A stretch of 64,000 bases of DNA, taken from positions 2,579,178 through 2,643,177 of the forward strand of contig CBDFGR010000003.1 of NCBI GenBank assembly GCA_965247115.1, given 5' to 3'. Position 1 is the first letter of the stretch. Each line of letters opens with the position of its first letter. The notes under the pieces were generated by a model, which had not been told where the DNA came from, did no database searches, and saw nothing but the letters and a program-made list of their open reading frames with translations. Origin of the DNA: Myxococcota bacterium (GTDB taxonomy: Bacteria; Myxococcota_A; UBA9160; SZUA-336). Made by a program: the position numbers and the translations under genes. Shown piece after piece: positions 26,413 through 64,000 of the stretch.

Positions 26413-26638
26413 TGCGCTCCTCCTTCTGTACCGAGCGGGTCGCCCGCTCGATGGCTTCCTCGTACTCGCGCTGGACGAGCCCGCGCGCGGACTTGCTTCG
26501 ACAACCGAACAGGTTCTGCCGCGTGCGGTACACCTCAGAGGCGACCATCATCGGGACCTGGTCCATGTGCACATCGCACATGACGACGATGTGATTCCGT
26601 GGTGCTCGGTGGCAACCCGCTACGCGACACACGCTCAT
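26390..26638 (-). CDS. Small zinc-finger protein
   Basis: C-x4-C...C-x2-H; ATGA overlap with upstream gene. Confidence 0.6.
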   Translation of the reverse strand: MSVCRVAGCHRAPRNHIVVMCDVHMDQVPMMVASEVYRTRQNLFGCRSKSARGLVQREYEEAIERATRSVQKEERSGATETP

Positions 26639-26877
26639 AGCAGCCTCGGCTGGTGCGGATCGCTGGCTCGAGCTTCGTGGATTCGCTGCCGTCGTCGTTC
26701 CGTGAAGACGTGCTCTCCCAAGCGTGCGCCTTCGGCCTCGAGCGTACGCAGAGCGCTGTACAAGTCTCTGCGCAGCGTGCGCTCCAGGTCCGGACTCTCG
26801 ATGAGGAACGTCACGATCTGCTCCTGCTCCTCCCAGCACTCCACCATTCGGGCCTCGAGCCTCTCCGCGGCGGTCAT
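26635..26877 (-). CDS. Hypothetical protein
   Basis: GGAGGAGG RBS, ATGA overlap with helicase. Confidence 0.65.
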   Translation of the reverse strand: MTAAERLEARMVECWEEQEQIVTFLIESPDLERTLRRDLYSALRTLEAEGARLGEHVFTERRRQRIHEARASDPHQPRLL

Positions 26878-27728
26878 GCCTCCTCCTTCGCGGGGAAGAA
26901 CCTGCTCGTTTGCCAGTCGCGCGTGAACGTGCCGAGCTTTCCGGCCGCGCCATCGCGATGCTTGATCAGGTCGAGCTCGCACTCGTCAGCCGCACCGTTC
27001 GGCTTCTTCCGGATCGTGAGGCCGACACTCGCTCGATACGCCGGGTTGCGGCCCTTGATCCCACCTGCGGCGTTGAGCTCGGAGCAGGCGATAAACCGGA
27101 TGAAGCCGTGACTCTCCTGGACGAGCCAGTCCATCCACGCCACGAGGAAACGCAGGTTCTGGAACTCGTTCGCTTGCGGCTTCGACATAAGGTCGCTGAT
27201 CGTGTTGAGCGAGTCGAGCACGACCAGGATCCCAGTGTGCCCGGTCATGTAGCGCTGAAGGATCAGGTCGACGACATCCGAGAGGCGGTGTCCGAAGTGG
27301 GCCCTGGTCCAGAACCATGACGTGCCCGCGATCCTTGGGAACTCTTGCGCGAAGTTGTGGCCGTACCAGCGTCGGACGCGCTTCTGCACCAAGCCCGCGC
27401 CGTTCTCCGCGTCGACGACGATTGTGCAGATGTCCTGATGCGCAGCCTCGAGCGAGCTGGCCAAGGCGGCCCCGCTCTTGCCGGCTCCCCACTCGCCGCC
27501 AAGCACCGTCAGTCCCTGGAACCCGCCGTACTTCTCGTCGAACACAGCGATCCCGGAAGGCCAGCGGGGATACTCGGGGAGATCCTCGTCCGCCATCGGG
27601 CTGACCTCAAGCCGCCGTCGGATCGATGGCAAGTCCTTCGCCTGCGCCAGCAGCCGCCGCGTTTGCTCCACCGCAGCAGCGGTCTGCTGGATCTGCTCCA
27701 CGTGGAAGAGGTCTGTCCGTTCCGTCAT
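26874..27728 (-). CDS. DnaB/RecA-fold replicative helicase-like ATPase
   Basis: Walker A GEWGAGKS, Walker B LVVLDS, SELN and KHRDG motifs. Confidence 0.82.
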   Translation of the reverse strand: MTERTDLFHVEQIQQTAAAVEQTRRLLAQAKDLPSIRRRLEVSPMADEDLPEYPRWPSGIAVFDEKYGGFQGLTVLGGEWGAGKSGAALASSLEAAHQDICTIVVDAENGAGLVQKRVRRWYGHNFAQEFPRIAGTSWFWTRAHFGHRLSDVVDLILQRYMTGHTGILVVLDSLNTISDLMSKPQANEFQNLRFLVAWMDWLVQESHGFIRFIACSELNAAGGIKGRNPAYRASVGLTIRKKPNGAADECELDLIKHRDGAAGKLGTFTRDWQTSRFFPAKEEA

Positions 27729-28602
27729 GCGCGCTCCTTCTGTCGTGCCGCCCCAAGCGAGGCGACTCCAGTGTCGAAGAGATCGGTCTGCGGGGCGTCG
27801 TCATCCGGTGGCGCGCGCGCGTCTTGCTCGCGTCGCTCTCGCTCGCGCACCTCGAAGTCCCGCTTCGCGCGGGCGCGGCTCAGACACGCCTGGTAGCGGT
27901 GCTCGAGTACCGCTCCGGAGTAGCCCGCGCTCTCGACATAGCGGTCGTCTCGGATCGCGAAGAACTCCGGCAGCAGAAGAACGAAGTCCTCCAGGCCGAC
28001 CGCCGCCGCGATGCTCTTGAGCGCCCTCTTGTCTCGGCCGACCGGATTGCAGTCTTCGCCTCGGTGCTCCCGGAAGGCTCGAAGAAGAGGCGGACGGCTT
28101 GCTGCCCGAGGGGCTCCGAGGCCCCGAGGGGCTCCGAGCTCTTCGGCTCAGTGCCTTTGGCCGCCCCGCGCTTCCGGCGCGGGGGGTTCTTTTCTTTTAA
28201 CGCGGAAGCGGAAGCGGAAGCGGAGGAGCCCGTAACTTTGTTTGGTGAAGCACGTTCACGTTGAACGTCAGCGCGTCGCGGGAACTGCTTTTTCGCGAAG
28301 TTAGGCCATTTCACCCGGTACGCGTCTGGCGCGACGTCGTCGGCCCTCTGAACCCGGACGGGCGTGAGGTCGGCCAGACGTGAGGCTCGCCAGAGCGCCG
28401 CCTTGAGCGTACCTACGTTGAATACTCGCATTAGGTCGAGGCTCGAGACGAGGAACTCGTCTTCGGTCCTGTCGGCGTAGCGGTCGATCGCGAGCATGCC
28501 GAGGCGGGCGTAGGCGGCCATGGTCCGGTCGTCCCGGTAGGCGCCGAGCGTCTTCCGGTGATTCCCGAACGAGCAGTACAGCTTGAAGTGGCCACCAGCC
28601 AT
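27725..28602 (-). pseudogene. Replication initiator (lambda O-like position) with frameshift near 28078
   Basis: WPNFAKKQ and SASASASA linker; the shifted frame continues AFREHRGED...QKERA* to an ATGA overlap with the helicase. Confidence 0.7.
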
Positions 28603-28818
28603 GTTGCTCTCACCCCCCGATGAGTCTCTGTGTGGAGACCTTAGCTGACGCGTGCCGGTGCACGGCTGGTGCGAGAGTCGGGCCCGCGGGACCGTCTGCG
28701 GGCTTCTCGTCAACCGAGATGCTCAGCCCGCGCGATTCATGGACCATCTTGTAGCCTTTGCAGGGGGGTAGAATGGCCGCTGCGAAGTGAGCCCCGACTC
28801 TGGGGCGGGAGGGAAGGA

Positions 28819-29295
28819 GTGCCCGAGCATGCGTGGATAAGCCGTCTCGGGCGCGTCCTCTTTGTGACGGCGTGCGGGGTGCTCCTTGGGTGGGTGCTGT
28901 GGGTGCCCGGTCCCGCCCTCTGGAACGAGGCGGCGGTCCGTGTGCACGCCTTTCGGCTCGACCGAGCCGAGATAGGCAAGCTGAGGTCCGCCGTCGGCTA
29001 CTTCGTCGAGAACTGCCTCGAGATCGACTGGGCTGCGAGGACTCCGAGCACATCTGCCTGTTTGAGCGCGGCCCTGGCGGGAGTTGGCGCCGTTGAGAAG
29101 ATCGCGAAGTCGCGAGGCGAGGAGTACGCGCCCGGAACAGAGGACAGCCCACAGGTGCGTGCAGCGCTGCTGAAGATATACAGGATGAGGCGCGTCTGCA
29201 TCGAAGCGATTGGCGGAGAATACAGCAGCGACTTCGGCGAGCGCGCAGCTTGTAAAGCGATGACCGAGGCGGTCTACCGACCGCTGCGGCGGTGA
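28819..29295 (+). CDS. Membrane-anchored Cys-containing exported protein (moron-like)
   Basis: GGAGGGAAGGA upstream of GTG; N-terminal TM segment; allele of 61220..61717. Confidence 0.65.
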   Translation: MPEHAWISRLGRVLFVTACGVLLGWVLWVPGPALWNEAAVRVHAFRLDRAEIGKLRSAVGYFVENCLEIDWAARTPSTSACLSAALAGVGAVEKIAKSRGEEYAPGTEDSPQVRAALLKIYRMRRVCIEAIGGEYSSDFGERAACKAMTEAVYRPLRR

Positions 29296-29299
29296 TGTT

Positions 29300-29560
29300 C
29301 CTCGCCGCGCCTATCTCGACCTCGTGGAGAGCCTGAAACCTCATGCCGCGAAGCTGCGTGGACTCGGTGAGATCACGGACCCCGATCGTGCGAGCGCGGC
29401 GCAGCCGATGATCCGCGCTTCGAGGGACGCTGCGAGGGACGCTGCGAGGGGAGCTGCGAGGGCCGTTGCGAGGGTCGCGCTCAAGCCGATCGTGCTCACG
29501 CTCCAGGATTCGGCACGCGATCTCGTCTGTCGAATGCTTGCGGTGGGGGAGTCCGCATGA
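29300..29560 (+). pseudogene. 5'-truncated homolog of the Ala-repeat protein of prophage 2
   Basis: LDLVESLKPHAAKLRGLGEITD...LQDSARDLVCRM matches the C-terminal half of 58792..59545. Confidence 0.8.
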
Positions 29561-29793
29561 CTCCCTCTTCTCCTCCCGACCGGGCGGCGATCGCGCGCCT
29601 CGACGTAGCGTCCCACCTCGAGCACTGTCAATACGAGCTTGATCCGGAGCTCGGATCGGATGCGTCCGCGACTACAGACTTCCGCGAGCGCAACGCGATT
29701 TCGGCTGCGCTCCTCGCTGTTCAGTCAGCCCTCCGTGAGCTGCGCCGTGCCGAGTTGGCCCGGAGGTCACGATGCGACTGGAGGAGATCGTGA
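29557..29793 (+). CDS. Hypothetical early protein
   Basis: ATGA overlap; packed operon. Confidence 0.5.
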   Translation: MTPSSPPDRAAIARLDVASHLEHCQYELDPELGSDASATTDFRERNAISAALLAVQSALRELRRAELARRSRCDWRRS

Positions 29794-30378: not shown

Positions 30379-30390
30379 AGGAGAGATGCC

Positions 30391-31188
30391 GTGAGCATGT
30401 TAGATCAGGTCACCACAGGAAGAACGATCCGGCCCCCGCGGATCGTCATTCATGGCAGAGGAGGAGTCGGCAAGACGACCTTCGGCGCGAGTACGCCGAA
30501 TCCGATCTTCCTGCCTGCAGAAGAGGGACTCGGCACGCTCGACGTGCCTCATGTTCCCATTCCCACGAGCTACGCCGAGATCCTCGAGACGATCACGGAT
30601 CTGCAACGTCAGGAGCACGTCTACCGAACCCTCGTCATCGACACGATCGACCACGTCGAGCCTCTCGTCTGGGAGGAGACGTGTCGTCGCATGTCCGAGG
30701 GGGGGCGGAAGACGTACGAGCACGTCGAGGATTTTGGGTATCAGAAGGGCTACCTGTTCGCCGATCGCGAGTGGACGCAGCTCTTTCACGCGCTGGACGC
30801 GATCCGACGCGACCCCGGCATGATGATCGTCGTGCTCTCCCACAACGAGAGCAAGACGTTCGAAGATCCGGTGATCGGTCCCTACGACCGCGTCACTCCG
30901 AAGCTCCACAAGCGAGCGAACGCGCTGCTCTACGAGTGGGCCGACATCGTCGGCTACCTGGAGATCCAGCGAGCCACGATCGAGAAGGAGGGCGCGAAGA
31001 GTCGGAAGGTGCGCACCAGCGCCACAACCGGCACGCGCGAGCTCTTTCTCGAGGACACGGGAGCCTTCATCGCGAAGAACCGCTACGGGCTTCCGATCCG
31101 CATCGAGGTGCCCCAGGCCAACCCTTACACCCCGCTCCGTGAAGCGCTGAAGTCGGCGCTCGGAGTCCAGAAGCAGGAGGCCGCGTAA
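30391..31188 (+). CDS. Sak4-like AAA ATPase (single-strand annealing)
   Basis: GRGGVGKTT, TLVIDTID, EWADIVGY and AKNR motifs. Confidence 0.88.
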   Translation: MSMLDQVTTGRTIRPPRIVIHGRGGVGKTTFGASTPNPIFLPAEEGLGTLDVPHVPIPTSYAEILETITDLQRQEHVYRTLVIDTIDHVEPLVWEETCRRMSEGGRKTYEHVEDFGYQKGYLFADREWTQLFHALDAIRRDPGMMIVVLSHNESKTFEDPVIGPYDRVTPKLHKRANALLYEWADIVGYLEIQRATIEKEGAKSRKVRTSATTGTRELFLEDTGAFIAKNRYGLPIRIEVPQANPYTPLREALKSALGVQKQEAA

Positions 31189-31692
31189 ATGCCACGCATC
31201 GGAGCAGCACTTCACGACGTAGAGGACAACGACATGCCGAGAGGAAGCTGGGTCGCTCTTGAGTCCGGCAAGTACCCGTTCATGATTACCGACAGCGAGT
31301 ACAAGCCGACGAAGAGGGGAGACGGGATGTGCTTGCACCTCACACTGCAGTGCATCCACCCAGATCACACCCGAGTAGAGCTGCGCGACTTTCTGACGCT
31401 CGAGCATCCCAATCCAGACACGGTCCGAATCGCGAAGGGTCGGCTGAAGCAGATCGGACTGGCCTGCAAGGTCAGGAATCCCGACTTCATCCAGGACAGC
31501 GAGGAGCTCCACAACATCCCGTTTGTCGCCAGCGTCTCGAAGGAAGAGGCGGAGGATCCGAAGTACGGAGATGTGGACGGCTACGAGAACCGGATTGCCA
31601 AGTACAAGCGGATCGACGGCAACGCCCCGATGTCCGAGCCACTGCCAGAGCAGTCGCAGCCTACTCGGGCCTCCGGGGACATCCTCTTCTGA
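31189..31692 (+). CDS. DUF669-like phage ssDNA-binding protein
   Basis: SGKY...DSEYKPTK.G.G..L.L...DSEELHN.PF; follows Sak4. Confidence 0.8.
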   Translation: MPRIGAALHDVEDNDMPRGSWVALESGKYPFMITDSEYKPTKRGDGMCLHLTLQCIHPDHTRVELRDFLTLEHPNPDTVRIAKGRLKQIGLACKVRNPDFIQDSEELHNIPFVASVSKEEAEDPKYGDVDGYENRIAKYKRIDGNAPMSEPLPEQSQPTRASGDILF

Positions 31693-32426
31693 TGGCCGAG
31701 CTCCCCCGCATCCGCAGTCCGCAGCCCCAGGTCGCCGACCGGATCTTCCGCGCCCTTGAGAGGCGGGAGGCCGATCGTCCGCGGAGCGGAAACCTCACCA
31801 TGAGCGGCATCGGAGAGTGCGCTCGCCACCTCTGGGCCGAGCGAAACGAGCACTCGACGCCGAAATCCAGGCCAGGCCGGGTGCTCGCGACCTTCGAGTA
31901 CGGAAACGCGACCGAGTCCCATGTGATCCGGCTCCTCCGCCTCGCGGACTACCTGATCGGGGCGGAGCAGCGTCGCGTCACCTGTGATCTCGGCGATGGA
32001 CTCACACTGCGCGGCCGGATCGACGGAACGATCCTCCTCGGCAAGAAATATTCCGAACGGCTGGAGGCGCTGCTCGAGGTGAAAAGTGCGAAGGCGTCGC
32101 AGTTCGAGGAGTGCAAGGCGAAGGGCTACGAGAAGTGGAATCCGAAGTACGCGGACCAGCTGCAGATGTACATGGGCGCGGGAGGCTTCCACATCGCCCT
32201 TGCCTTCGTCTATTGCAAGGACATCTCCGAGCCCTACCCGGAGAAGATCCGCTTCGAGCCAGAGCGCTACGAGGCCCTGAAGGCGAAGGCACGTCTGATT
32301 CTCACTTCCGAGGAGCCGCCCAAGCGCCCCGATGAGGCGACTTCACAGTTCTGCAGCTTCTGCAAGTGGTGCAATTCGAACGAGTGGTGCTGGTCGCCAG
32401 TCTCGGAGACACGCTTCGACGATTGA
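31692..32426 (+). CDS. Cas4-like PD-(D/E)XK exonuclease
   Basis: GRIDG, LLEVKS and QLQMYM motifs, with an N-terminal Cys and a C-terminal Cys cluster. Confidence 0.82.
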   Translation: MAELPRIRSPQPQVADRIFRALERREADRPRSGNLTMSGIGECARHLWAERNEHSTPKSRPGRVLATFEYGNATESHVIRLLRLADYLIGAEQRRVTCDLGDGLTLRGRIDGTILLGKKYSERLEALLEVKSAKASQFEECKAKGYEKWNPKYADQLQMYMGAGGFHIALAFVYCKDISEPYPEKIRFEPERYEALKAKARLILTSEEPPKRPDEATSQFCSFCKWCNSNEWCWSPVSETRFDD

Positions 32427-32738
32427 GGGAGAGATTCGCATGGGGGGAAGACGATCTGCTGAACGACCTTAGGACTGCGCGGGAGCCGACGCGGCGGGAG
32501 ATCAGCGACGTTCTCCTCTTCGGGAGCTTCGACGGGAGCATGGGTAGAGCCCGACCTCTGCTTGAGCTGCGTCGAGGGTGAGACGGACAGCCGAGGCGCC
32601 GGTCGATCTGCCGTACTGCGCATGCGAGCAGACCGGGGAGTCCGTACGGAACATCGGCATGCTCTCGGAGCCCCACTATCTCAACGTGCCACTGCTGCCT
32701 GCTTGGCAAGCAGAGGAGGAGGACGACGGCGGCGAGAC

Positions 32739-33035
32739 ATGAGCAGCAAGAAGCCAACGCCCCTGGCGGCCCGTCCTGAGCGGTCGGTGGAGTATCGCCG
32801 GAACCCTCCACCCTGGATGAATTTCACTCAGCTCGCCGCCTACCTCGGATGTTCCGCCAAGACGGTGCGGAACTATGCAAGGATGGGGATGCCGTACAGC
32901 CCCATCGGAGGAGAGAACAAGGTGAAGCTCGAAAAGTTCTGGGCTTGGTTCGACGACCACGAGGTTCGCGAGGACGAGGAATCCGAGGCCTTCGCAGCCC
33001 GAGTCGTTGGTAGGATTCGCCGCCATGGCCGGTAA
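32739..33035 (+). CDS. Excisionase-like HTH protein
   Basis: NFTQLAAYLGCSAKTVRNYARMGMP; directly upstream of int. Confidence 0.75.
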   Translation: MSSKKPTPLAARPERSVEYRRNPPPWMNFTQLAAYLGCSAKTVRNYARMGMPYSPIGGENKVKLEKFWAWFDDHEVREDEESEAFAARVVGRIRRHGR

Positions 33036-34281
33036 TCTGCGTCGCCGCGGACGAGTATGGCATGCGGACATATCGGTCGATGGCCAGCGACACCGCCTCT
33101 CGATGCGGACGAGCAGCCGAGTGGTCGCCGAGAAGCGCCTGCAAGACATCGAGACCAAGATCGCAGCCGGCGGCGGGGATTGGCGCAACACCGCGAGCCG
33201 ATCACTCCGCGAGGCTTTCGACGACTTCCTTGCATCGTCGACGAGCGAGCGTACGACGCTTTCGCGGTACAGGACGGGGTTCGACCTGGCCTGTGCGTAC
33301 TTCGGGGCGCAGCGGCCGCTGTCGACGATCACGCGCGGCGACGCGCAGGCATTCGCCAAGAGCTTGCAGCTCAAGCCCGACGGGACACACCGGGCCCTGA
33401 GCACCCTCAAGAACTTGAACGCGGGGATCCGCCAGGTCTTCCAGGAAGCAGTCGACTCCGAAGAGATCCGCGAGAATCCGTGGGTTGTTGCGCGCGTAAT
33501 CCGCAGGCTCGTACCAAAGCGCGAGCTCATCGAGGAAGATGACGAGCTCGTGATCCCGTTCACACGCGCCGAGCAACGGAAGCTGCTGGAGCACCTGCAG
33601 CCGCGCGATCGCGGGATGCACATCGCTGCCGTGCTCGGGCTACGGTGCGGACTCCGCCGCTCCGAGGTGCTCGCGCTCCATTGGGACGACATCGATCTCG
33701 AGTCGACTCCTCCCATGCTGCACGTCCGGCGCCGCGTTGCGGCCGGGCGCGCGGGCCCGGTCAAGTCGAAGACGTCGCGCCGGCGCGTGCCCCTCAGCGA
33801 GGAGTCCGTCGCAGCTCTTCGCGCATACCGCATGACGCTGCGGACTGAGGCGATGAAGCGGGGCGGCCAGAATCTGATGCCCGCGGTCGTGCCGAGCCAT
33901 CGGCCGGGCACGGGAGCGAGCTACAGGGAGATCGGTCGATTCAGCAAGGCGTTCCGGAAGATGCTCGTCGAGGCGAAGATCGACCTCCGGACCGAACATC
34001 CGTTCCATCGGCTGCGACACACGTATTGCTCCGAGCTCCTCTCGATGGGAGTCGACGTCGACCGGGTCTCGAGATGGGCGGGACACCAGACGCCGGCGAT
34101 AACCAAGCGGCACTACGAGCATTTCATCCCGAATCCCGACGACGCAAAGCTCGTCAATCAGCTCGATCAGGGAATTGCTGGGGACCCGCTCACGGGCGAC
34201 ACCGAGGAGCGTCACTTTCGCCAGAAGGAGCCGTCACAGTTTGGCACACATACGTCACAGTCCGAGCGAAAGCGAAGCTAG
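33025..34281 (+). CDS. int: Tyrosine integrase (prophage 1)
   Basis: GLRRSE, HRLRH, GH and HY catalytic motifs. Confidence 0.93.
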   Translation: MAGNLRRRGRVWHADISVDGQRHRLSMRTSSRVVAEKRLQDIETKIAAGGGDWRNTASRSLREAFDDFLASSTSERTTLSRYRTGFDLACAYFGAQRPLSTITRGDAQAFAKSLQLKPDGTHRALSTLKNLNAGIRQVFQEAVDSEEIRENPWVVARVIRRLVPKRELIEEDDELVIPFTRAEQRKLLEHLQPRDRGMHIAAVLGLRCGLRRSEVLALHWDDIDLESTPPMLHVRRRVAAGRAGPVKSKTSRRRVPLSEESVAALRAYRMTLRTEAMKRGGQNLMPAVVPSHRPGTGASYREIGRFSKAFRKMLVEAKIDLRTEHPFHRLRHTYCSELLSMGVDVDRVSRWAGHQTPAITKRHYEHFIPNPDDAKLVNQLDQGIAGDPLTGDTEERHFRQKEPSQFGTHTSQSERKRS

Positions 34282-34326: not shown

Positions 34327-34404
34327 TGGGGTGGGCGAGGGGACTTGAACCCCCGACTTCCGGAACCACAATCCGGCGCTCTAACCAACTGAGCTACGCC
34401 CACC
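34327..34404 (-). tRNA. tRNA-His(GTG), probable prophage 1 integration target
   Basis: Cloverleaf with G-1, CCGGA-TTGTGGT-TCCGG anticodon arm, GTTCAAG T-loop and encoded CCA. Confidence 0.95.
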
Positions 34405-54893: not shown

Positions 54894-56285
54894 CTAAGCC
54901 TGCGTCTTTGCGGACAAAAGCCGAGCCGCTATAGTCCGCCCGGGCGCGTAGCTCAGTTGGCAGAGCAGCGGACTCTTAATCCGCCGGTCGCCGGTTCGAT
55001 CCCGGCCGCGCTCACCATGGAACGTCGCGACGTTGCTAACAGTTTCTGCAATGTCGCCAGGAGCGTGTTGGTCTGAAAACCCCGAGTGTCCGCTTTGTGG
55101 ACGTTTATTGGGCGCGCCAAGCCGAGCCAGCACGTCCGTCGGCAGCTCGCCATAGGCTAGTGGCGGTGTCGGCTGATACCTCTTGCGACGGATGTACTTG
55201 GTGTAGTGACTCTCCGTCACGCCCACGGACGAATGGCCCAGCTGGTCGGCGATGTGCACGAGTTCCTGACCATTCGAGAGCAGCTGGCTCGCGAAGGTGT
55301 CGCGCAGATCTTTCGGTCGCCACGCTCGAGTGGTCCCGGCACGCGCCAGGATTCTGCGCCACTGCCTCTGCCTCCAGTTGCCCTGGTCGCGCGGCACAAT
55401 GACACGATCCGGGCTGGGCCGGAACTCTTGTGTGTAGAGCTCCATCAGGACCCGTCGTAGCCGCCTGGAGAGATCCACATAGCGCGTCCTCCCACTCTTG
55501 GGTGGATCACCGGGGTACATGCCTCTGGGGTTCGACTCCGAGATCTCGAGGCTGCGGCCTAGGTCGTTCTCGTCCTCTCCCCAGTTGACTGCCCGCCAGC
55601 GGATCTGCATGGCTTCTCCGATGCGCAGTCCAGCGTCGAGCATGAGCAGCACCAGCACGTGATCTTCTAGACTCTCCTCTCGGGCCGAAGCAAGGATGCG
55701 TTCGATTTCCGCGGGGTCCTCAATAGGCCGGACATGCTTCCCCGCCTCACTTAGAGCTCTGCCCTTCTTGGTCTTGTTCTCCTCCCGGATAATGGCCTGA
55801 AAGTCTACGACGGGATTGTGCGCGATGAGCCGGTGACGACGGGCTCGGCGCATAATTGCCGAGACGCTATCGAGATATCGCCGTCCCGTACTTGTCGCTC
55901 GCTTCCCCTCGATGCTCTCTTCCCACCACCGGAGTAGCGACTCATCCGTGAGTTGAGATATCGGGATGTCGCCAAAAGCCCGGTCCAGTATTCCGCCAAG
56001 ACGGAGATGATTTCTGTGGTCATCCTGCGTTGTACCTGCCAGGTTCGACATCCCGTGCTTGAGGTAGGCGGCGGCTGCGTCTCGGAACAGGAGCTCGTTA
56101 CCCTCTGGTGTGTAGCCGCGCTCTTCATACTCCAGGATGAGCCTCGACGCAGCGGCCCTTGCTTTCCCGGCGTCTTTGGTCCGGAGGGACTGACGGGGGA
56201 TGAGTATCTCGTTGCCTTCTACGTACTCCACGTAGTAGTGCGCGCCACGCTTGAAGATTCGAGGGCCGTCTGCCTTACGAGACAC
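54894..56285 (-). CDS. int: Tyrosine integrase (prophage 2), ORF runs antisense through tRNA-Lys
   Basis: GLRIGE, KDLRD, LGH and HY motifs. Confidence 0.92.
   Translation of the reverse strand: MSRKADGPRIFKRGAHYYVEYVEGNEILIPRQSLRTKDAGKARAAASRLILEYEERGYTPEGNELLFRDAAAAYLKHGMSNLAGTTQDDHRNHLRLGGILDRAFGDIPISQLTDESLLRWWEESIEGKRATSTGRRYLDSVSAIMRRARRHRLIAHNPVVDFQAIIREENKTKKGRALSEAGKHVRPIEDPAEIERILASAREESLEDHVLVLLMLDAGLRIGEAMQIRWRAVNWGEDENDLGRSLEISESNPRGMYPGDPPKSGRTRYVDLSRRLRRVLMELYTQEFRPSPDRVIVPRDQGNWRQRQWRRILARAGTTRAWRPKDLRDTFASQLLSNGQELVHIADQLGHSSVGVTESHYTKYIRRKRYQPTPPLAYGELPTDVLARLGAPNKRPQSGHSGFSDQHAPGDIAETVSNVATFHGERGRDRTGDRRIKSPLLCQLSYAPGRTIAARLLSAKTQA
54942..55017 (+). tRNA. tRNA-Lys(CTT), probable prophage 2 integration target
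   Basis: Cloverleaf, GCGGA-CTCTTAA-TCCGC anticodon arm, GTTCGAT T-loop, CCA. Confidence 0.95.
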
Positions 56286-56532
56286 GGGCGGCTCTTCTCA
56301 GGATGCGCTCCTGGACACGGGACTCCCGGATTCGATCCGCAGCGACGGTGAGGCTATGGGGGCGACTCCGTTCTTGCTCATGCACCCACTCCCTTACCGC
56401 CTCCGGACGGAACCGAGGTCTCCGGCCCACGTAGAAGTGCGGGAATCCGCCCCTCATCATCTTTCGCACGGTCTTGGTGCTGCACTGAAGGAACTCTGCA
56501 CACTGATCGAGACTCCAGCACGGGTCCTTCAT
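56275..56532 (-). CDS. Excisionase-like HTH protein
   Basis: SLDQCAEFLQCSTKTVRK...PHFYVGRRPRF...VREW. Confidence 0.82.
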   Translation of the reverse strand: MKDPCWSLDQCAEFLQCSTKTVRKMMRGGFPHFYVGRRPRFRPEAVREWVHEQERSRPHSLTVAADRIRESRVQERILRRAARVS

Positions 56533-56607
56533 GGCACGAGCGTTCCCACAAGCTGGATCGCACCATACCAGACCACACCGCAGATCATGGCAAGTCGAGC
56601 CGACGGC

Positions 56608-56796
56608 TCAGTTGCCATCTCTCCGCCTCGGCCTGCGAGACGGAGGCGTGTTCTCCGCCTCCTCCATCCCGTCCCATGCTTCCTTCATGTGCTCAGCGCA
56701 GAGACGGAAGCCGTCGCGATCGACCAGTTGCTCGCAGCCCTCGGAGCCCTCGCAGGGGACGCGGTCGACCAACTCTTGGTCGGTGGTTCGTGTCAC
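56608..56796 (-). CDS. Small Cys-containing hypothetical protein
   Basis: GTGA overlap with recT stop; C-x5-C...C-x2-H. Confidence 0.5.
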   Translation of the reverse strand: MTRTTDQELVDRVPCEGSEGCEQLVDRDGFRLCAEHMKEAWDGMEEAENTPPSRRPRRRDGN

Positions 56797-57746
56797 CTCT
56801 GCTCCTTCAGCAGCTTCGCGATCGAGCACCCCGGTGTGTGACCGAGATCAGCCGAGCGTTCGCAGTCGGGGCAGTTGTCGCGCGTCGGGTCGAAGCCCTC
56901 GGGCAGCGCCGAGAACTTCGGGCCGTCGTTGGGTGGTCCCGGCTCCGGTGTGGCCTCACTGGATCCCTCACTCGGAGCCGGGCGACCCGTTGCATTCGCG
57001 TCGTCAGAGGGCGTCCCGGCGTTCGGCGCAGCAGAGTCGTCTGAGTCCCCCACATCCTCAGGCTCTGCGTTCGGTGCAGCGGGATCGCCGGGCCCGGGTC
57101 CGACGATCTCAGGCTCGATCGGCTCACCCGCGAAGAGTGCACGAGCCGGGTCCGCCGTCGGAGTCTCCTCGCGCGGCGGTGTGACGTTGATCTCAAGCCT
57201 TGACTCGCCGTAGCCGGGCATGTCCTCAGCGACGGGAACACGCCGGGTCATGTCGGCCCAGTTCCGTCGGCAGTCGCGCGCTACGGCCTTCCAGATGAGC
57301 ATGTCCTTCGGGTACTTTGACCAGACGCTCGGCTCGCCGTTGCGATCCTTCTTGCCGGGGTAGAGCCCAGCCAGCATCGCGTCCTCTAGACTGAAGGTCA
57401 CCTTGTCGTTCTCAGATTGACCGCGCCGCTTTGAGACGACCCACCCCGTAAGGTTTCCATCCTCGAGCGACCCCTGGGTTCCCATCCTGAGCGACTCGCA
57501 CTCTTCGCGACTCCGGATGATCGCCACCATCGCCTCGCCGGGAAGACCTACCTTCCCCTTGACGACGTGAAACATCTGCAAGCTCTGGAACGCGTCGAAG
57601 CCGATCTCTCTCCCCATCGCCATCGCGACGAAGCAGTCGTTCGGCTTGTTGCGGAAGGGCTCGGGAACCAGGCTCGAGAGGGCCGCCTGCTTCGCGAGCG
57701 CGCCGAGCTCCTTTGCGTTGGTCGGACGCAGCCCGCCCTCGCTCAT
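56793..57746 (-). CDS. RecT-like single-strand annealing protein (possibly extends to 57896 across an in-frame TAA)
   Basis: SLVPEPFRNKPNDC...GREIG...WSKYPKDML motifs. Confidence 0.85.
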   Translation of the reverse strand: MSEGGLRPTNAKELGALAKQAALSSLVPEPFRNKPNDCFVAMAMGREIGFDAFQSLQMFHVVKGKVGLPGEAMVAIIRSREECESLRMGTQGSLEDGNLTGWVVSKRRGQSENDKVTFSLEDAMLAGLYPGKKDRNGEPSVWSKYPKDMLIWKAVARDCRRNWADMTRRVPVAEDMPGYGESRLEINVTPPREETPTADPARALFAGEPIEPEIVGPGPGDPAAPNAEPEDVGDSDDSAAPNAGTPSDDANATGRPAPSEGSSEATPEPGPPNDGPKFSALPEGFDPTRDNCPDCERSADLGHTPGCSIAKLLKEQR

Positions 57747-57892
57747 GTCCGCGATCGCCCCAGTGGAATCGACGATCGTGGCGACCCCGCGTTACTCCTC
57801 CATCTCGGGCTTCTCTTCGCTGGAGCCCGGAGGGTGAACCTCGCAGTTTGTTCCGTGCGGGGAGCCCTCCGGGGCGTTGCAGCTCTTGCAGT

Positions 57893-58795
57893 TCAAAACA
57901 CGACCTCTTCGTCTCTTTCGACTCGTCGCAGCCGCCACGGTGGCAGCTCGGTCAGTAGCGTCGACGTTCCGTATCCAGGCCAGACGCCCGACTCCGTACA
58001 CGCGGCGTACTCCGTCAGATGCGTGCGCACTTCACGCTGACCCGCATCGAGAGACTCCGGCCCGGTCTCATGCGTCGCGACGATGTGCGGAGCCGCCTTC
58101 TCGATCACGATGAAGACGAACCGACGCGGCATCTCGCCGAAATGCGCGTCCATCGCCATCCGGTAGAACGCCTCCTGACGGTGGTAGCCGAAGTCTCCCA
58201 TCGCTCGCGCGAACGCTTCCTTGGAAGCGAGCCGCGCCGTCGTCTTCAGGTCGACGACGATGACGTAGCCCTCGTACTCCGTGATCCGGTCGAGTCTCGC
58301 CTTGCAAAGCAGACCCGACTGCTCGTCCTCCCAAACGAGCGTGAGCTCGTTCTGCCCTGCCCCCTTCAGCAGCCGGCGCGCGAGCTCGTTCCGGTTGACC
58401 CCGTCGCGCATCGCCAAGACCAGGTTCATGTCCTGGCGCTTCAGGATCCCCTTACCCGCGTTCTCCGCCTCGAACTCGGCCCAGATGGCCTTGTCCTTCT
58501 TGTAGCGGCGGTCGACCTTAGGAGCGACGACCCACTCGTCGTCGAACTTCTCCGGCTCGAGCACGGCGCAGTGCAGAGCGGCGCCGATGTCGAGGTGATC
58601 CTTCGGGGGCGGAGGGTGGTCGATCAGGTACTTCGCGTGCGCGGGCGTCCTACCGTCGGCGAAGTAGCTGAGCTTCGTGCTGCGGACCGCGTCGATCGCG
58701 TCGTACTCGGTCTCGGAGAGGCCACGGTAGACGCCTGGCTTCGACTCTCTCGCCCATCTCTTCAGATCGCTGCGGAGAGGGAGGGGGGGAGTCAT
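57893..58795 (-). CDS. RecE/exonuclease VIII-like PD-(D/E)XK nuclease (DUF3799-like)
   Basis: GAALHCAVLEP, CKARLD, VDLKTT, YHRQEAFY and WPGY motifs. Confidence 0.9.
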   Translation of the reverse strand: MTPPLPLRSDLKRWARESKPGVYRGLSETEYDAIDAVRSTKLSYFADGRTPAHAKYLIDHPPPPKDHLDIGAALHCAVLEPEKFDDEWVVAPKVDRRYKKDKAIWAEFEAENAGKGILKRQDMNLVLAMRDGVNRNELARRLLKGAGQNELTLVWEDEQSGLLCKARLDRITEYEGYVIVVDLKTTARLASKEAFARAMGDFGYHRQEAFYRMAMDAHFGEMPRRFVFIVIEKAAPHIVATHETGPESLDAGQREVRTHLTEYAACTESGVWPGYGTSTLLTELPPWRLRRVERDEEVVF

Positions 58796-59545
58796 GCGAA
58801 CTCTCCCACCGCGACCATTCGACAAACGAGATTGCTTGCCGAATCCTGGAGCGCGAGCATGGTTGGCTTGAGCGCGTCCCTCACAGCGATCCCCGCAGCA
58901 GCCCTCGCAGCGTTCCTCGCAGCGATCCCCGCAGCGACCTCCGCAGCGTCCCCCGCAGCGACCTCCGCAGCGTCCCTCACAACGTCCCACGCAGCGACCT
59001 CCGCAGCGTCCCACGCAGCGTCCCTCGCAGCGTCCCTCGCAGCGGCCCACGCGGCGGCCCACGCGGCGGCCCCCGCAGCGCGGATCATCGGCTGTGCCGC
59101 TCTCGCACGATCGAAGTCCGTGATCTCACCGAGTCCGCGCAGCTTCGCGGCGTGAGGCTTCAGACGCTCCACGAGGTCCAACCATGCGGGCGTGTGGACC
59201 CGGATGAGCCAGTCGAGGGCCAGGTAGGAGCGAGCGAGCTCCGTATCGGAATCTCCTGCCGATCCCACGAGACGGGGGAGCAGCGGCTTGAGCAGACGGT
59301 CCCGATCCTCGTCTGGAAGGCGGTCATTCCAGCAGCGGATGAAGGCTCCGACCACGGCGCTCGTGCACTTGGGATGGATGGTCACTGTGCTTCTCCCCTG
59401 CAAGCCAGGCGACAACTTCGAGCGCGCAGTGGCCCTCGTCGAAGCTTGAGGAGGAACCCGTGCCCAGGTGCAGAGAGTCCAGCTGGGCGAGACGGTCAGG
59501 GAGAGGACGTTGGGGGTCCAGAGGGGAAGGAGGGGGAGCGGGCAT
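58792..59545 (-). pseudogene. Ala-repeat phage protein frameshifted by a 4-bp duplication at 59372..59379
   Basis: HCALEVVAWLAGEKHSDHP joins KCTSAVVGAFIRCWND once one GGAT copy is removed. Confidence 0.8.
58876..59079 (-). repeat. 17 tandem 12-bp units encoding AAxx tetrapeptides
   Basis: AAGA AAWA AAWA AARD AARD AAWD AAEV and so on. Confidence 0.92.
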
Positions 59546-59570
59546 CGGAAGCCTCCGTCGTAGATAGATG

Positions 59571-59633
59571 CGGAATATCCTAACTTCGGTATATCCACAA
59601 TTAAAGGGCGAAAGTTGGATATTCCGAATATCC
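59571..59633. promoter_or_regulatory. Left operator-like cluster (four CGGAATATCC-like sites)
   Basis: Sites at 59571, 59587, 59617 (reverse) and 59624 in an AT-rich intergenic region. Confidence 0.7.
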
Positions 59634-59678
59634 AGGCGAACGGTTAGTGATCTCGCGTGGTTGTGGGTCCGAGCGTAG

Positions 59679-60104
59679 CTACGATCGGCTACGAGGCCGC
59701 GTGGGGATGGAGTCCCCATCGACGGCCCAAGAGCCGATGATGGCGTCGATCTCTCGCCTGAGGCGATTCTCGGGGATCTTAGCTAGTGCGGTGAGCCGCT
59801 TGCCGCCCAGTACGGCAGCCAGATCGTCGGCAAGCCTCTCTGGAGTGGCATCGCCGGGCAGAGGTGAAGGCAAGAGCCAGGAGCCAGAAACGCCCGTCGT
59901 TCTTGCAATATTGGACAGATGAAGTGCGGTGGCACCCGTCCGCCCGCTTTCCCAATCGTTGATCGTGCTGGGACTGACCTTGAGCTCTCGGGCGAGATCC
60001 GCCTTTCTTAGAGAGGCCTGCTCGCGCGCGCTCGCGATCCGTTGTCCCAGAACTTTCCGAAAAGTGCGCAGCTCCTTTGAGACCTTCGCGGCCTTCTTCG
60101 GCAT
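59679..60104 (-). CDS. CI-like XRE repressor
   Basis: LGQRIASAREQASLRKADLARELKVSPSTINDWESG; divergent from the cro-like gene. Confidence 0.88.
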   Translation of the reverse strand: MPKKAAKVSKELRTFRKVLGQRIASAREQASLRKADLARELKVSPSTINDWESGRTGATALHLSNIARTTGVSGSWLLPSPLPGDATPERLADDLAAVLGGKRLTALAKIPENRLRREIDAIIGSWAVDGDSIPTRPRSRS

Positions 60105-60174
60105 CGCCAGCCACCCCCGCGTCACCTCTGATGTTAGAGGATTCCTAAGCAGCAGTAGTGTGTTAGCGAAAATG

Positions 60175-60230
60175 CGGAATATCCGTATTCAGTCAGCTCT
60201 CGACTCAGGAGCCAATGTGTGGAATATCCG
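60175..60230. promoter_or_regulatory. Right operator-like sites (GGAATATCCG x2)
   Basis: Same motif as the left cluster, between the divergent cI and cro genes. Confidence 0.7.
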
Positions 60231-60473
60231 AACAACACGGTGGAGCATCCATTCAGACGCTATTGCTTGGAGCACGACCTAACGCAGGCGGAATTCGCGC
60301 GACTGGTCTCTCTATCCCCTCCCTACGTCAGCCAGCTCATAAGCGGCCGAGAGCGAATCGGTCGCATCGCTGCACTTCGAGTGGTCGAGAAGACCGGAGG
60401 CGAAGTTACGCTCGCGCAACTACTCACGTGGGAACCGGCGACTCCCAAGCCCGCAGCGGAGGGGGCGGCGTGA
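60219..60473 (+). CDS. Cro-like HTH protein (start may be GTG 60240)
   Basis: LTQAEFARLVSLSPPYVSQLISG...TGGEVT. Confidence 0.85.
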   Translation: MEYPNNTVEHPFRRYCLEHDLTQAEFARLVSLSPPYVSQLISGRERIGRIAALRVVEKTGGEVTLAQLLTWEPATPKPAAEGAA

Positions 60474-60475
60474 GG

Positions 60476-60661
60476 TCACTCGGGGACCTCGGGCTCTCTT
60501 CCGCGAATCGGCGGCGCCTCGATCGTATCGGGGTCCGAGCGGCCGGGTTCACCGAAGTCCGCGCCGACGCAGGTGTACAGCAGGGTCGCGAGGAGGAATC
60601 CAATCGCGATGCCGGCCCACGTCGCGTTCCCTTCCTGCTCAGCCGGGGATGCTTCGGACAT
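60476..60661 (-). CDS. Small single-TM protein, antisense moron
   Basis: GGAGGGG RBS, ATG 60661, WAGIAIGFLLATLLYTCV TM segment. Confidence 0.6.
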   Translation of the reverse strand: MSEASPAEQEGNATWAGIAIGFLLATLLYTCVGADFGEPGRSDPDTIEAPPIRGREPEVPE

Positions 60662-60824
60662 CGTTCCCCTCCCGCCCCGGAACCCGGACTCATGTCGCAA
60701 TGGCCATTCTACGGTGCTGGGGTGGGAGGAGGTCGGAGTCATCGCTTTCGTGCAGGATTGCGCGCGAGCACGGTCAAGTACGGTCATGAGAAAGTTGTGG
60801 GGGGCGAAAGTGAGGTAACCCCCC

Positions 60825-61154
60825 GTGGAATCTGGACGAATCGAGCAAGCCGTCCGGCGAATGCTGGACGATGCCGACGCCTGGATGGACTTTGCTCTCG
60901 CCTGCCACGCAGCCTTCTGCTGGCAGGGCAGCGAGGAGTCAGCGCTGACACTGCTCTCGCACTGGCTTCGCGACGACCGTCGGCGACACCTGCCACCGAA
61001 GGCGATCCTCATCGCGATTCGAGTGACCGGCCTCGACTACGTCAGCCCTCTGCTACACGAGGAAGCGTACCAGGCCCGACTCGAGCGGGACCGCCAGCGC
61101 GACCGCAAGGGTCCGATTGCCCTCGAGAGCGTCGCGCGCAGGCGGAGCGCGTAG
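60825..61154 (+). CDS. CII-like regulator by position
   Basis: LLSHWLRDDRRRHLP; GAGG RBS; lies between cro and replication genes. Confidence 0.5.
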   Translation: MESGRIEQAVRRMLDDADAWMDFALACHAAFCWQGSEESALTLLSHWLRDDRRRHLPPKAILIAIRVTGLDYVSPLLHEEAYQARLERDRQRDRKGPIALESVARRRSA

Positions 61155-61219
61155 CGATTCACACCCGCGCGACGCCCCGTAAGCGCCGCCGAACCCGCCA
61201 CAGAGGGAGCCGCGTGAGG

Positions 61220-61717
61220 TCACTCCAGGCGCCCATGGGTCAGGTAGACCGCATCGCTCATCCCTTTACAAGCTGCGCGCTCGCCGAAGTCGCTGCTGTA
61301 TTCTCCGCCAATCGCTTCGATGCAGACGCGCCTCATCCTGCGTATCAGCAGCGCGTCACGCGCTGCACCCTGTGGGCTGTCTGGTCGGGGCGTGTAATAC
61401 CCCTCGCCTCGCGACTTCGCGATCTTCGCAACGGCGCGAACTCCCGCCACGGCCGCGCTCAAACAGGCAGATGTGCTCGGAGTCCTCGCACCACCCTGCG
61501 GAGCCCAGTCGATCTCGAGGCAGTTCTCGACGAAGTAGCCGACGGCGGACCTCAGCTTGCCTATCTCGGCTCGGTCGAGCCGAAAGGCGTGCACACGGAC
61601 CGCCGCCTCGTTCCAGAGGGCGGGACCGGGCACCCACAGCACCCACCCAAGGAGCACCCCGCACGCCGTCACAAAGAGGACGCGCCCGAGACGGCTTATC
61701 CACGCATGCTCGGGCAC
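61220..61717 (-). CDS. Membrane-anchored Cys-containing exported protein, antisense moron
   Basis: Allele of 28819..29295 with identical N-terminal half and diverged C-terminal half. Confidence 0.65.
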   Translation of the reverse strand: MPEHAWISRLGRVLFVTACGVLLGWVLWVPGPALWNEAAVRVHAFRLDRAEIGKLRSAVGYFVENCLEIDWAPQGGARTPSTSACLSAAVAGVRAVAKIAKSRGEGYYTPRPDSPQGAARDALLIRRMRRVCIEAIGGEYSSDFGERAACKGMSDAVYLTHGRLE

Positions 61718-61933
61718 TCCTTCCCTCCCGCCCCAGAGTCGGGGCTCACTTCGCAGCGGCCATTCTACCCCCCTGCAAAGGCTACAAGATGGTCCATGAA
61801 TCGCGCGGGCTGAGCATCTCGGTTGACGAGAAGCCCGCAGACGGTCCCGCGGGCCCGACTCTCGCACCAGCCGTGCACCGGCACGCGTCAGCTAAGGTCT
61901 CCACACAGAGACTCATCGGGGGGTGAGAGCAAC

Positions 61934-62811
61934 ATGGCTGGTGGCCACTTCAAGCTGTACTGCTCGTTCGGGAATCACCGGAAGACGCTCGGCGCCTACC
62001 GGGACGACCGGACCATGGCCGCCTACGCCCGCCTCGGCATGCTCGCGATCGACCGCTACGCCGACAGGACCGAAGACGAGTTCCTCGTCTCGAGCCTCGA
62101 CCTAATGCGAGTATTCAACGTAGGTACGCTCAAGGCGGCGCTCTGGCGAGCCTCACGTCTGGCCGACCTCACGCCCGTCCGGGTTCAGAGGGCCGACGAC
62201 GTCGCGCCAGACGCGTACCGGGTGAAATGGCCTAACTTCGCGAAAAAGCAGTTCCCGCGACGCGCTGACGTTCAACGTGAACGTGCTTCACCAAACAAAG
62301 TTACGGGCTCCTCCGCTTCCGCTTCCGCTTCCGCGTTAAAAGAAAAGAACCCCCCGCGCCGGAAGCGCGGGGCGGCCAAAGGCACTGAGCCGAAGAGCTC
62401 GGAGCCCCTCGGGGCCTCGGAGCCCCTCGGGCAGCAAGCCGTCCGCCTCTTCTTCGAGCCTTCCGGGAGCACCGAGGCGAAGACTGCAATCCGGTCGGCC
62501 GAGACAAGAGGGCGCTCAAGAGCATCGCGGCGGCGGTCGGCCTGGAGGACTTCGTTCTTCTGCTGCCGGAGTTCTTCGCGATCCGAGACGACCGCTATGT
62601 CGAGAGCGCGGGCTACTCCGGAGCGGTACTCGAGCACCGCTACCAGGCGTGTCTGAGCCGCGCCCGCGCGAAGCGGGACTTCGAGGTGCGCGAGCGAGAG
62701 CGACGCGAGCAAGACGCGCGCGCGCCACCGGATGACGACGCCCCGCAGACCGATCTCTTCGACACTGGAGTCGCCTCGCTTGGGGCGGCACGACAGAAGG
62801 AGCGCGCATGA
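61934..62811 (+). pseudogene. Replication initiator with the same frameshift near 62458
   Basis: TTC TTC GAG CC TTC CGG: one base short of F-F-E-A-F-R. Confidence 0.7.
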
Positions 62812-63662
62812 CGGAACGGACAGACCTCTTCCACGTGGAGCAGATCCAGCAGACCGCTGCTGCGGTGGAGCAAACGCGGCGGCTGCTGGCGCAGGCGAAG
62901 GACTTGCCATCGATCCGACGGCGGCTTGAGGTCAGCCCGATGGCGGACGAGGATCTCCCCGAGTATCCCCGCTGGCCTTCCGGGATCGCTGTGTTCGACG
63001 AGAAGTACGGCGGGTTCCAGGGACTGACGGTGCTTGGCGGCGAGTGGGGAGCCGGCAAGAGCGGGGCCGCCTTGGCCAGCTCGCTCGAGGCTGCGCATCA
63101 GGACATCTGCACAATCGTCGTCGACGCGGAGAACGGCGCGGGCTTGGTGCAGAAGCGCGTCCGACGCTGGTACGGCCACAACTTCGCGCAAGAGTTCCCA
63201 AGGATCGCGGGCACGTCATGGTTCTGGACCAGGGCCCACTTCGGACACCGCCTCTCGGATGTCGTCGACCTGATCCTTCAGCGCTACATGACCGGGCACA
63301 CTGGGATCCTGGTCGTGCTCGACTCGCTCAACACGATCAGCGACCTTATGTCGAAGCCGCAAGCGAACGAGTTCCAGAACCTGCGTTTCCTCGTGGCGTG
63401 GATGGACTGGCTCGTCCAGGAGAGTCACGGCTTCATCCGGTTTATCGCCTGCTCCGAGCTCAACGCCGCAGGTGGGATCAAGGGCCGCAACCCGGCGTAT
63501 CGAGCGAGTGTCGGCCTCACGATCCGGAAGAAGCCGAACGGTGCGGCTGACGAGTGCGAGCTCGACCTGATCAAGCATCGCGATGGCGCGGCCGGAAAGC
63601 TCGGCACGTTCACGCGCGACTGGCAAACGAGCAGGTTCTTCCCCGCGAAGGAGGAGGCATGA
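62808..63662 (+). CDS. DnaB/RecA-fold helicase-like ATPase
   Basis: Translation identical to 26874..27728. Confidence 0.82.
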   Translation: MTERTDLFHVEQIQQTAAAVEQTRRLLAQAKDLPSIRRRLEVSPMADEDLPEYPRWPSGIAVFDEKYGGFQGLTVLGGEWGAGKSGAALASSLEAAHQDICTIVVDAENGAGLVQKRVRRWYGHNFAQEFPRIAGTSWFWTRAHFGHRLSDVVDLILQRYMTGHTGILVVLDSLNTISDLMSKPQANEFQNLRFLVAWMDWLVQESHGFIRFIACSELNAAGGIKGRNPAYRASVGLTIRKKPNGAADECELDLIKHRDGAAGKLGTFTRDWQTSRFFPAKEEA

Positions 63663-63901
63663 CCGCCGCGGAGAGGCTCGAGGCCCGAATGGTGGAGTGC
63701 TGGGAGGAGCAGGAGCAGATCGTGACGTTCCTCATCGAGAGTCCGGACCTGGAGCGCACGCTGCGCAGAGACTTGTACAGCGCTCTGCGTACGCTCGAGG
63801 CCGAAGGCGCACGCTTGGGAGAGCACGTCTTCACGGAACGACGACGGCAGCGAATCCACGAAGCTCGAGCCAGCGATCCGCACCAGCCGAGGCTGCTATG
63901 A
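63659..63901 (+). CDS. Hypothetical protein
   Basis: Translation identical to 26635..26877. Confidence 0.65.
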   Translation: MTAAERLEARMVECWEEQEQIVTFLIESPDLERTLRRDLYSALRTLEAEGARLGEHVFTERRRQRIHEARASDPHQPRLL

Positions 63902-64000
63902 GCGTGTGTCGCGTAGCGGGTTGCCACCGAGCACCACGGAATCACATCGTCGTCATGTGCGATGTGCACATGGACCAGGTCCCGATGATGGTCGCCTCTG
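63898..64000 (+). CDS. Small zinc-finger protein, partial
   Basis: Matches the start of 26390..26638. Confidence 0.55.
   Translation, partial: MSVCRVAGCHRAPRNHIVVMCDVHMDQVPMMVAS

Follow-up and report, generated by a model that had tools for sequence, protein, structure and literature searches.

Do two neighbouring prophage regions that share an exact inverted repeat record an exchange of phage arms by inversion, and does such an inversion act as a switch? The question is raised by a stretch of 64,000 nucleotides from an uncultured Myxococcota bacterium (NCBI GenBank assembly GCA_965247115.1), referred to here as the window, which is the last 64 kb of contig C3 (CBDFGR010000003.1; 2,643,177 bp) in a genome of 5.17 Mb assembled in three contigs (C1 to C3). 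A first-pass annotation, made from the letters of the window without database searches, had described twin back-to-back prophages with an identical inverted replication module and had proposed that a 32-kb inversion would swap their arms and turn excision on or off. The two regions are called here the Lys element, which has the integrase gene int2 at tRNA-Lys, and the His element, which has int1 at tRNA-His. The explanation that accounts best for the locus, with about an even chance of being correct, is that a real inversion by homologous recombination exchanged arms between a Lys prophage that had been intact and a defective remnant, the His element.

The inverted repeat and the attachment sites

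The two repeat copies (Table 1) are identical in inverted orientation at 2499 of 2499 positions, which bears out the claim of a mirror-image repeat of at least 2499 bp, and a chance origin is excluded by this length. As had also been noted, exact identity ends abruptly at a 12-bp indel, which is visible in the alignment of both copies and marks its inner limit; past it the alleles are diverged, and homology continues inward for ∼250 bp, to positions 29282 and 61238 in the BLAST alignment. The indel falls within one divergent gene that has an open frame in both copies. Exact identity stops inside older, diverged homology, as would be expected of a recent recombination event or a conversion tract. 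At the other side, the right copy stops at position 64000 because this is the final base of contig C3, and not merely the edge of the window.

The name replication module for the repeat is plausible; it comes from weak matches of a helicase-like gene (Table 1) and of a putative replication initiator. The initiator has two homologues besides itself, of which P0003 matches a replication-initiator family (E 3e-4). The closer homologue, P0002, aligns with the first 151 amino acids (aa) only and not with the alternative frame to which GC content at third codon positions (GC3) shifts near position 28090, where short-read contigs are identical to the assembly.

The orientation of the attachment (att) sites bears on which arms belong together. 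The tRNA-Lys core, which is the 3' half of the gene, has a copy to the left of the window (Table 1) that is inverted, as assembled, relative to tRNA-Lys; a phage P-arm adjoins this copy on the inside, and host DNA follows on the outside. The same P-arm is present at the far end of an int2 prophage on contig C2 (235403-279380), whose two cores are direct repeats. Since the P-arm and int2 bracket this direct-repeat prophage, their pairing is cognate, and a Lys core with an int2-family P-arm thus assigns the lambda-like head/tail arm of the window to the int2 phage. The left element cannot be read as one prophage, as the first-pass annotation had done, because a Lys core terminates the head/tail arm and cI and cro are missing from the His arm. 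The inverted Lys cores suggest that the assembled order is likely the arm-swapped one and that a flip would restore direct Lys att sites. With regard to the outer att cores, whose identity the annotation had proposed to determine, the left outer end is a Lys core in inverted orientation and the right outer end lies beyond the contig end.

The segment between the repeat copies measures 32,467 bp. A crossover between the copies would, as proposed, invert this segment and exchange the arms, but the direction is the reverse of that expected, the Lys att sites being already inverted. In the flipped model tRNA-Lys lies at 35519-35594 on the minus strand, and the Lys prophage measures 50,287 bp, includes cI and cro, and has the direct attL and attR that are lacking in the assembled order. 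Its genes then run int-xis-recombination-cI-cro-replication-resolvase-terminase-head-tail, which is the lambdoid order. At the level of sequence, the locus has two features of a hybrid-prophage inversion: prophage regions in opposite orientation on one replicon with long homology, and a displaced and inverted Lys att site that regains its orientation once the inversion is reversed. Contrary to the back-to-back layout first described, 20.5 kb of host genes (clpB to SDR) lie between tRNA-His and tRNA-Lys and would be carried by the inversion.

The His core has a single copy (43 bp, 97.7%), at C2 1100731-1100773. With its partner on contig C2 the His element would be excisable in neither orientation, and the 32,467-bp flip alone leaves this att pair unrestored, so that the proposed toggling of att sites would apply to the Lys pair and not to the His pair. 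Genome-wide, 30 copies of tRNA or tmRNA 3' ends were found (at least 25 bp, at least 95% identical), of which 14 are direct and downstream of the gene and 16 are arranged otherwise; three of these are Lys halves that phages carry at secondary sites. Among the 30, no inverted copy other than the Lys partner lies near its gene. For tRNA-SeC, the gene and a 27-bp att copy lie on different contigs (C2 761830 and C3 809430), each beside one prophage arm.

The inner arms differ as had been stated, with Sak4, SSB, a Cas4-type exonuclease, xis, and int1 at tRNA-His versus exonuclease VIII, RecT, xis, and int2 at tRNA-Lys, and each encodes an annealing protein (Sak4-like and RecT-like, respectively). 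The products of int1 and int2 are 23% identical over 172 aa. All of the catalytic residues of int1 (R, H-x-x-R, H, Y) are kept; int2 also keeps its catalytic residues, with a K-D-L-R variant of H-x-x-R that it has in common with another integrase in the genome. The Lys element thus combines a catalytically conserved integrase with xis and a cI/cro switch, and a GGAATATCC-like motif occurs in five copies around cI and nowhere else in the window. Its virion genes are not intact, as the portal gene has an in-frame TGA. The His arm has neither cI nor cro, with no match to a helix-turn-helix repressor between positions 29295 and 30391, and the operator-like motif is absent from it. The 2.06 kb of the Lys arm at 59179-61237, where cI and cro lie, have no counterpart in the His arm. 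A sigma-70 scan of 28400-34600 gave 0 promoter-like sites (0.8 expected by chance) and is uninformative. The His arm is probably a remnant that lost cI and cro by deletion at the junction given in Table 1; as an excisable prophage, the His element is without both the cI/cro switch and a nearby direct att partner. The lack of cI/cro and of operator-like motifs in the His arm and the in-frame stop in the portal gene weaken the earlier picture of twin active phages with a switch.

In order to arrive at the assembled arrangement, the ancestral Lys prophage would have run from attR-Lys through the head/tail arm, the replication module, cro/cI, exonuclease VIII-RecT, and xis-int2 to tRNA-Lys, over 50.3 kb with direct att sites. 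To its right would have lain 20.5 kb of host DNA, tRNA-His, the int1-Sak4 arm without cI/cro, and the second module copy. The His remnant and the Lys prophage may first have come to share the module by recent exchange or conversion, and a crossover in the module, via RecA or the phage annealases (RecT, Sak4), would then have inverted 32.5 kb. In the swapped state the head/tail arm would be severed from the cI/cro switch and the Lys att sites would be inverted, making this a grounded prophage. Tyrosine-integrase recombination at inverted sites inverts DNA rather than excising it, and Int2/Xis2 would invert ∼70 kb instead of excising the prophage. The locus would be one of many prophage-bounded rearrangements in the genome rather than a dedicated switch; the genome looks rearranged at mobile elements because 16 of the 30 tRNA copies are displaced and GC skew changes sign repeatedly across it. 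A motif scan found no DnaA-box cluster or dif-like site.

Table 1. Positions of the features discussed (window coordinates unless a contig is given)
Feature	Position	Strand	Content or remark
Lambda-like head/tail arm	1..22488	-	Tail fibre, J, tape measure, tail tube, capsid E, decoration D, S49 protease, portal, TerL gpA, TerS
Portal gene (PF05136)	18263..19822	-	Split by in-frame TGA at 19148-19150
Holliday-junction resolvase and small early/late genes	23358..26535	-	
Left repeat copy	26536..29034	.	Small open reading frames (ORFs), helicase-like AAA gene, putative replication initiator, 5' part of divergent gene
Helicase-like AAA gene	26874-27728		284 aa; DnaB-like, phrog_19, E 8e-5; AAA_25 below Pfam's cut-off
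Putative replication initiator	starts 28602		Apparent frame change near 28090; label from weak homologue match
Diverged repeat continuation	29035..29282	.	Inside divergent gene (28819-29295); open frames of 158 and 165 aa
Putative deletion junction	29296..29314		Divergent gene runs into 3' third of repeat-rich gene
His arm	30391..34281	+	Sak4-like annealase, SSB, Cas4-domain exonuclease, xis, tyrosine integrase int1
tRNA-His	34327..34403	-	Predicted attL of His element
Host segment	34404..54941		20.5 kb; clpB, M50 peptidase, acyltransferase, permease, tRNA-Arg, sugar-nucleotide genes, oxoprolinase, DNA polymerase B, S41 peptidase, SDR
Lys arm	54894..59598	-	int2, xis, RecT-like annealase, exonuclease VIII, repeat-rich gene
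tRNA-Lys(CTT)	54942..55017	+	Predicted attL of int2 phage; core 54973-55017
cI-like gene	59679-60125	-	Within switch region 59568..60473
cro-like gene	60219-60473	+	Within switch region 59568..60473
Right repeat copy	61502..64000	.	Truncated by contig C3 end
Lys core copy	C3 2564454-2564498	-	45 bp, 100%; predicted attR, 14.7 kb left of window position 1

Assembly context, read depth, and competing explanations

Repeated sequence is present at all six contig ends of the genome. The C1 end and the C2 start share 2412 exact bases. The C2 end is similar to C2 255-264 kb (99.7%) and the C3 start to C2 273-279 kb (99.9%), while the C1 start is similar, in reverse orientation, to C3 1.3-7.3 kb. C1 1-6007 and C3 1-7341 have a common host flank and att junction followed by different prophage continuations, which may represent strain variants, a recombinant, or an assembly fork. 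The 2499-bp repeat ranks tenth by length among the 20 exact repeats of at least 1450 bp in the genome, and the head/tail arm holds two more of these (4286-6938 and 20062-22467). Many exact repeats of 2.4 to 3.2 kb have both copies internal to contigs, and thus the assembly usually traversed repeats of such size.

Contigs of short-read runs X2 to X5, which contain 74 to 95% of sampled words, were compared over positions 21000-35000; a fifth run, X1 (share, 0.08), was left out. The four runs have one sample label and come from one study, possibly the one from which the genome was assembled, and are not independent of the assembly; the depths are per-contig means at low coverage rather than copy numbers. 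In X2, X3, and X4, a single contig that matches the assembly exactly covers the repeat (26714-29073), at depths of 6.91, 13, and 15, respectively. Head/tail-specific depths in the same runs were 2.6-2.8, 8.6, and 10.1, and those of the His arm were 3.2-3.8, 4.0-4.8, and 4.8-5.3, giving a head/tail to His-arm ratio of ∼2 in X3 and X4 and ∼0.7 in X2 (range, 0.7 to 2.1). Repeat depth minus His-arm depth (3.1-3.7, 8.2-9.0, and 9.7-10.2) is close to the head/tail depth, and the repeat is ∼2-fold deeper than the one host contig measured in X4 (6.95). X5 has the allele with the 12-bp insertion, which is the Lys-arm allele, and only slight head/tail-specific cover (bins, 0.24-0.92). The short-read contigs break at the repeat and do not resolve the orientation of the arms. 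Within this one study, the presence of both 12-bp indel alleles and the roughly additive depth argue against a false duplication and do not support one mis-assembled prophage. One contig of X4 (depth 4) joins 22745 to 30406, but with a side of only 30 bases this single joint is not reliable and was left out of account.

An assembly mis-join is a serious, if less probable, possibility: the cells would have a Lys prophage in intact order and a His remnant, with no inversion, and the assembler would have taken the wrong exit from the repeat and ended the contig within its second copy. The right copy ends at a contig end with 2499 exact bases much as the C1 end and the C2 start overlap by 2412 bp, and the flip restores a textbook prophage. 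In addition, the subtraction of His-arm depth from repeat depth comes out as if the head/tail arm travelled with the Lys arm, and haplotyping errors and false joins are described for long-read metagenome assemblers (bioRxiv 10.1101/2025.04.22.649783). However, other 2.4- to 3.2-kb repeats were traversed unbroken, and the depth linkage is indirect, with Lys-arm depth obtained by subtraction from low-coverage means of a single study. The 2-fold depth of the repeat relative to the host contig in X4 means that additivity is not unique to a mis-join, and X5 has the Lys-arm allele yet little head/tail-specific cover.

It is unlikely that the inversion is an active, reversible switch, with both orientations coexisting and the Lys prophage toggling between an excisable, cI-controlled state and a grounded one. 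The geometry of the repeat and att sites permits toggling, a contig break inside one copy is expected from a mixed population, both integrases keep their catalytic residues, both arms encode annealases, the head/tail to His-arm depth ratio varies between runs, and reversible prophage inversions with phenotypes are reported in Campylobacter jejuni (PMC1950947). There is, however, no direct evidence of coexisting orientations, and the comparable inversions described in Escherichia coli O157 cultures concern only ∼1-2% of cells (PMC8743559). The portal stop and the possible frameshift in the initiator lead one to expect little phage output either way, and no dedicated invertase was found among the 73 ORFs scanned. 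Site-specific invertible elements of the Gin, Hin, or shufflon type combine short inverted crossover sites with such an invertase. The repeat at this locus is 2.5 kb of coding DNA, and the ORFs include two phage integrases and no serine recombinase, which rejects an element of that type.

A route without a crossover in the repeat, either Int2-type recombination at secondary sites or integration of a phage circle by homology, with later gene conversion, seems very unlikely. It draws on the use of secondary sites like the Lys anticodon arm by int2-family phages, and a single crossover alone leaves unexplained 2.5 kb of perfect identity inside diverged homology. On the other hand, the left core (P-arm, core, host) and the right core (host, core, int) form a normal attR/attL pair, which one inversion in the repeat restores with no extra steps.

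For the preferred explanation, a homologous-recombination inversion in the cells, several observations count on the negative side. The left junction comes from the assembled contig and may have been joined wrongly; the last base of the right copy is also that of the contig, and the genome as a whole has repeats at six of six contig ends; the two continuations of one locus at the C1 and C3 starts point to path ambiguity in the assembly; and the displaced att copies could themselves partly be mis-joins. The mismatch between head/tail and His-arm depth fits poorly with arms joined in every cell. No empty-site synteny was found in the 40 relatives examined, and although the GC skew of the host segment scores z = +2.19, its flanks are of mixed sign and hence give no orientation. 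Among control blocks, 21 of 151 were opposite in sign to their surroundings and 1 had a skew score as large as that of the host segment.

Phage arms, host segment, and other candidate rearrangements

Lys-type arms nearly identical to that of the window are present at C1 1354-5990, C2 274757-279380, and C3 1365-5988. The int2 frame (54894-56285 in the window; C1 1398-2672; C2 278063-279380; C3 4671-6089) traverses its own att site, and the C terminus varies with the integration site (463, 449, and 472 aa), with one copy ending before the att site at 424 aa. Phages of the int2 family are also found at secondary sites that resemble the tRNA-Lys anticodon arm (C2 279380 and C1 1354/C3 5988), where each carries a phage-borne tRNA 3' half; an empty look-alike of the anticodon-arm site is located at C3 ∼678.5 kb. 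The int2 arm was found joined to the lambda-like virion module and to two different short-tailed-phage-like ones. A phage gene family with expanding tandem repeats of 12-bp units (58787-59178, 29318-29565, C3 804.3-805.3 kb, and C3 1214.5-1215.5 kb) adjoins the recombination genes of several prophages; its members (phrog_18326, phrog_3416, and phrog_8332) are unannotated with respect to function.

Beyond the left edge of the window, the head/tail arm goes on with lysis-region, cargo, and methylase genes until the tRNA-Lys att core is reached. Profile matches within it include capsid E (PF03864), portal (PF05136), and terminase gpA, and the closest annotated capsid is 45% identical (Cyanophage Cy-LDV1). 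The same in-frame stop as in the portal gene is present in a paralogous portal fragment (C3 1.036 Mb, ∼1036198), and an intact portal at C3 789 kb has Arg at the position of the TGA; the two paralogues may have either a shared lesion or readthrough. Positions 24457-26743 are 98.6% identical to another prophage at C3 795-798 kb. At C3 1040385-1041837, a tRNA-Phe 3' half and P-arm-like sequence come after an integrase gene. This attP-like arrangement within the chromosome adjoins a terminase-portal fragment nearly identical to that of the window.

In 15 of the 17 loci compared at family level, tRNA-His lies upstream of clpB in divergent orientation. A search of 40 relatives gave no clear orthologue of the SDR beside tRNA-Lys (best, 48%), and none of six symporter loci had a tRNA in the flanks examined. 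Downstream of tRNA-His, none of 12 loci compared (of the 15 with tRNA-His) matched the C2 sugar-cluster side, and in a same-genus genome (G002) insertion sequences interrupt the tRNA-His region. The 5' half of tRNA-Lys is part of a 57-bp direct repeat (93%; 53399-53455 and 54925-54981), which brackets a 1.5-kb islet with one SDR gene, possibly a 5'-end-type tRNA insertion.

On contig C2, an amidohydrolase-hydrolase cassette is present in two inverted copies that are 98-99% identical (1091.8-1094.2 kb and 2197.5-2200.0 kb) and flank 1.1 Mb, a span centred approximately on the skew minimum at C2 1.588 Mb. If an inversion between these copies were undone, the Phe and His att copies would be direct. 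For this reason the short-tailed-phage-like arm at the C2 end is a candidate for the sequence past the C3 end. The C2 end is, however, equally able to join the C3 start by way of a copy of the C2 prophage, and a third cassette copy, at C3 2.36 Mb, has the same flank.

Meaning of the locus and comparison with known systems

The likeliest reading is that this locus is one more case, from an uncultured lineage, of related prophages that invert DNA and leave hybrid, non-excisable prophages. Its practical value is as a caution: the orientation of att sites reveals that the DNA was either rearranged or wrongly joined at a contig end, and prophage boundaries called from the assembly would be chimeric. 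If the switch were real, the 32-kb flip would alternate between an excisable state, with direct Lys att sites, and a grounded one, in which these sites are inverted and Int2 acts as a 70-kb invertase, and would couple or uncouple the replication and virion genes and the only cI/cro switch. If both orientations were frequent and differed in phage output, inversion-controlled lysogeny could be tested cleanly at this locus, given how close together the two elements lie and that they have one cI/cro switch between them.

A close parallel is Bacillus anthracis CDC 684, for which an inversion between prophages LambdaBa04 and LambdaBa02, with exchange of inner att sites and formation of hybrid prophages, is described (PMC3210476). 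In both cases recombination lies within two lambda-like prophages and the hybrids are diagnosed from att orientation. The CDC 684 inversion, as reported, spans 3.3 Mb of a closed genome, whereas the one proposed here spans 32.5 kb, has a cI-less remnant as a partner, and has junctions from the assembly alone. In C. jejuni HPC5, inversions between CampMu prophages are reported to make chimeric prophages, alter excision and phage production, and revert at the same sites (PMC1950947). The CampMu prophages are Mu-like, with 9 kb of homology, up to 590 kb inverted, and phenotypes demonstrated, in contrast to tyrosine-integrase phages at tRNA genes with 2.5 kb of homology that are known from sequence.

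Continual prophage-bounded inversions in ∼1-2% of cells are described for E. coli O157:H7 (PMC8743559), and an 800-kb inversion that formed chimeric prophages and was missed by short reads is described for Bartonella (PMC6257571). Like those systems, with their minority orientations in populations, the locus lies in a chromosome rich in prophages, would have shared modules as substrates, and involves an event beyond short reads. The reported O157:H7 and Bartonella events are far larger and were confirmed by long reads, optical maps, or pulsed-field gel electrophoresis.

Prophages have been termed grounded (PMC6379469) when a change in att orientation, or recombination with a related phage, leaves them unable to excise and they then decay; grounding and hybrid prophages are also reviewed in PMC13492144. 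Grounding is a concept from a review, and that of the Lys element would be reversible in principle. In the myxophages Mx8 and Mx9, attP is described as lying inside int (PMC6070905), and the int2 frame likewise traverses its att site, with a C terminus that differs by integration site. Unlike those integrases as described, Int2 targets tRNA-Lys and secondary sites, and the likeness is one of description rather than of sequence comparison. The process is thus already known from these systems, and what differs at the Myxococcota locus is its scale (32 kb) and its asymmetry, with one phage that bears a switch and one that is a remnant.

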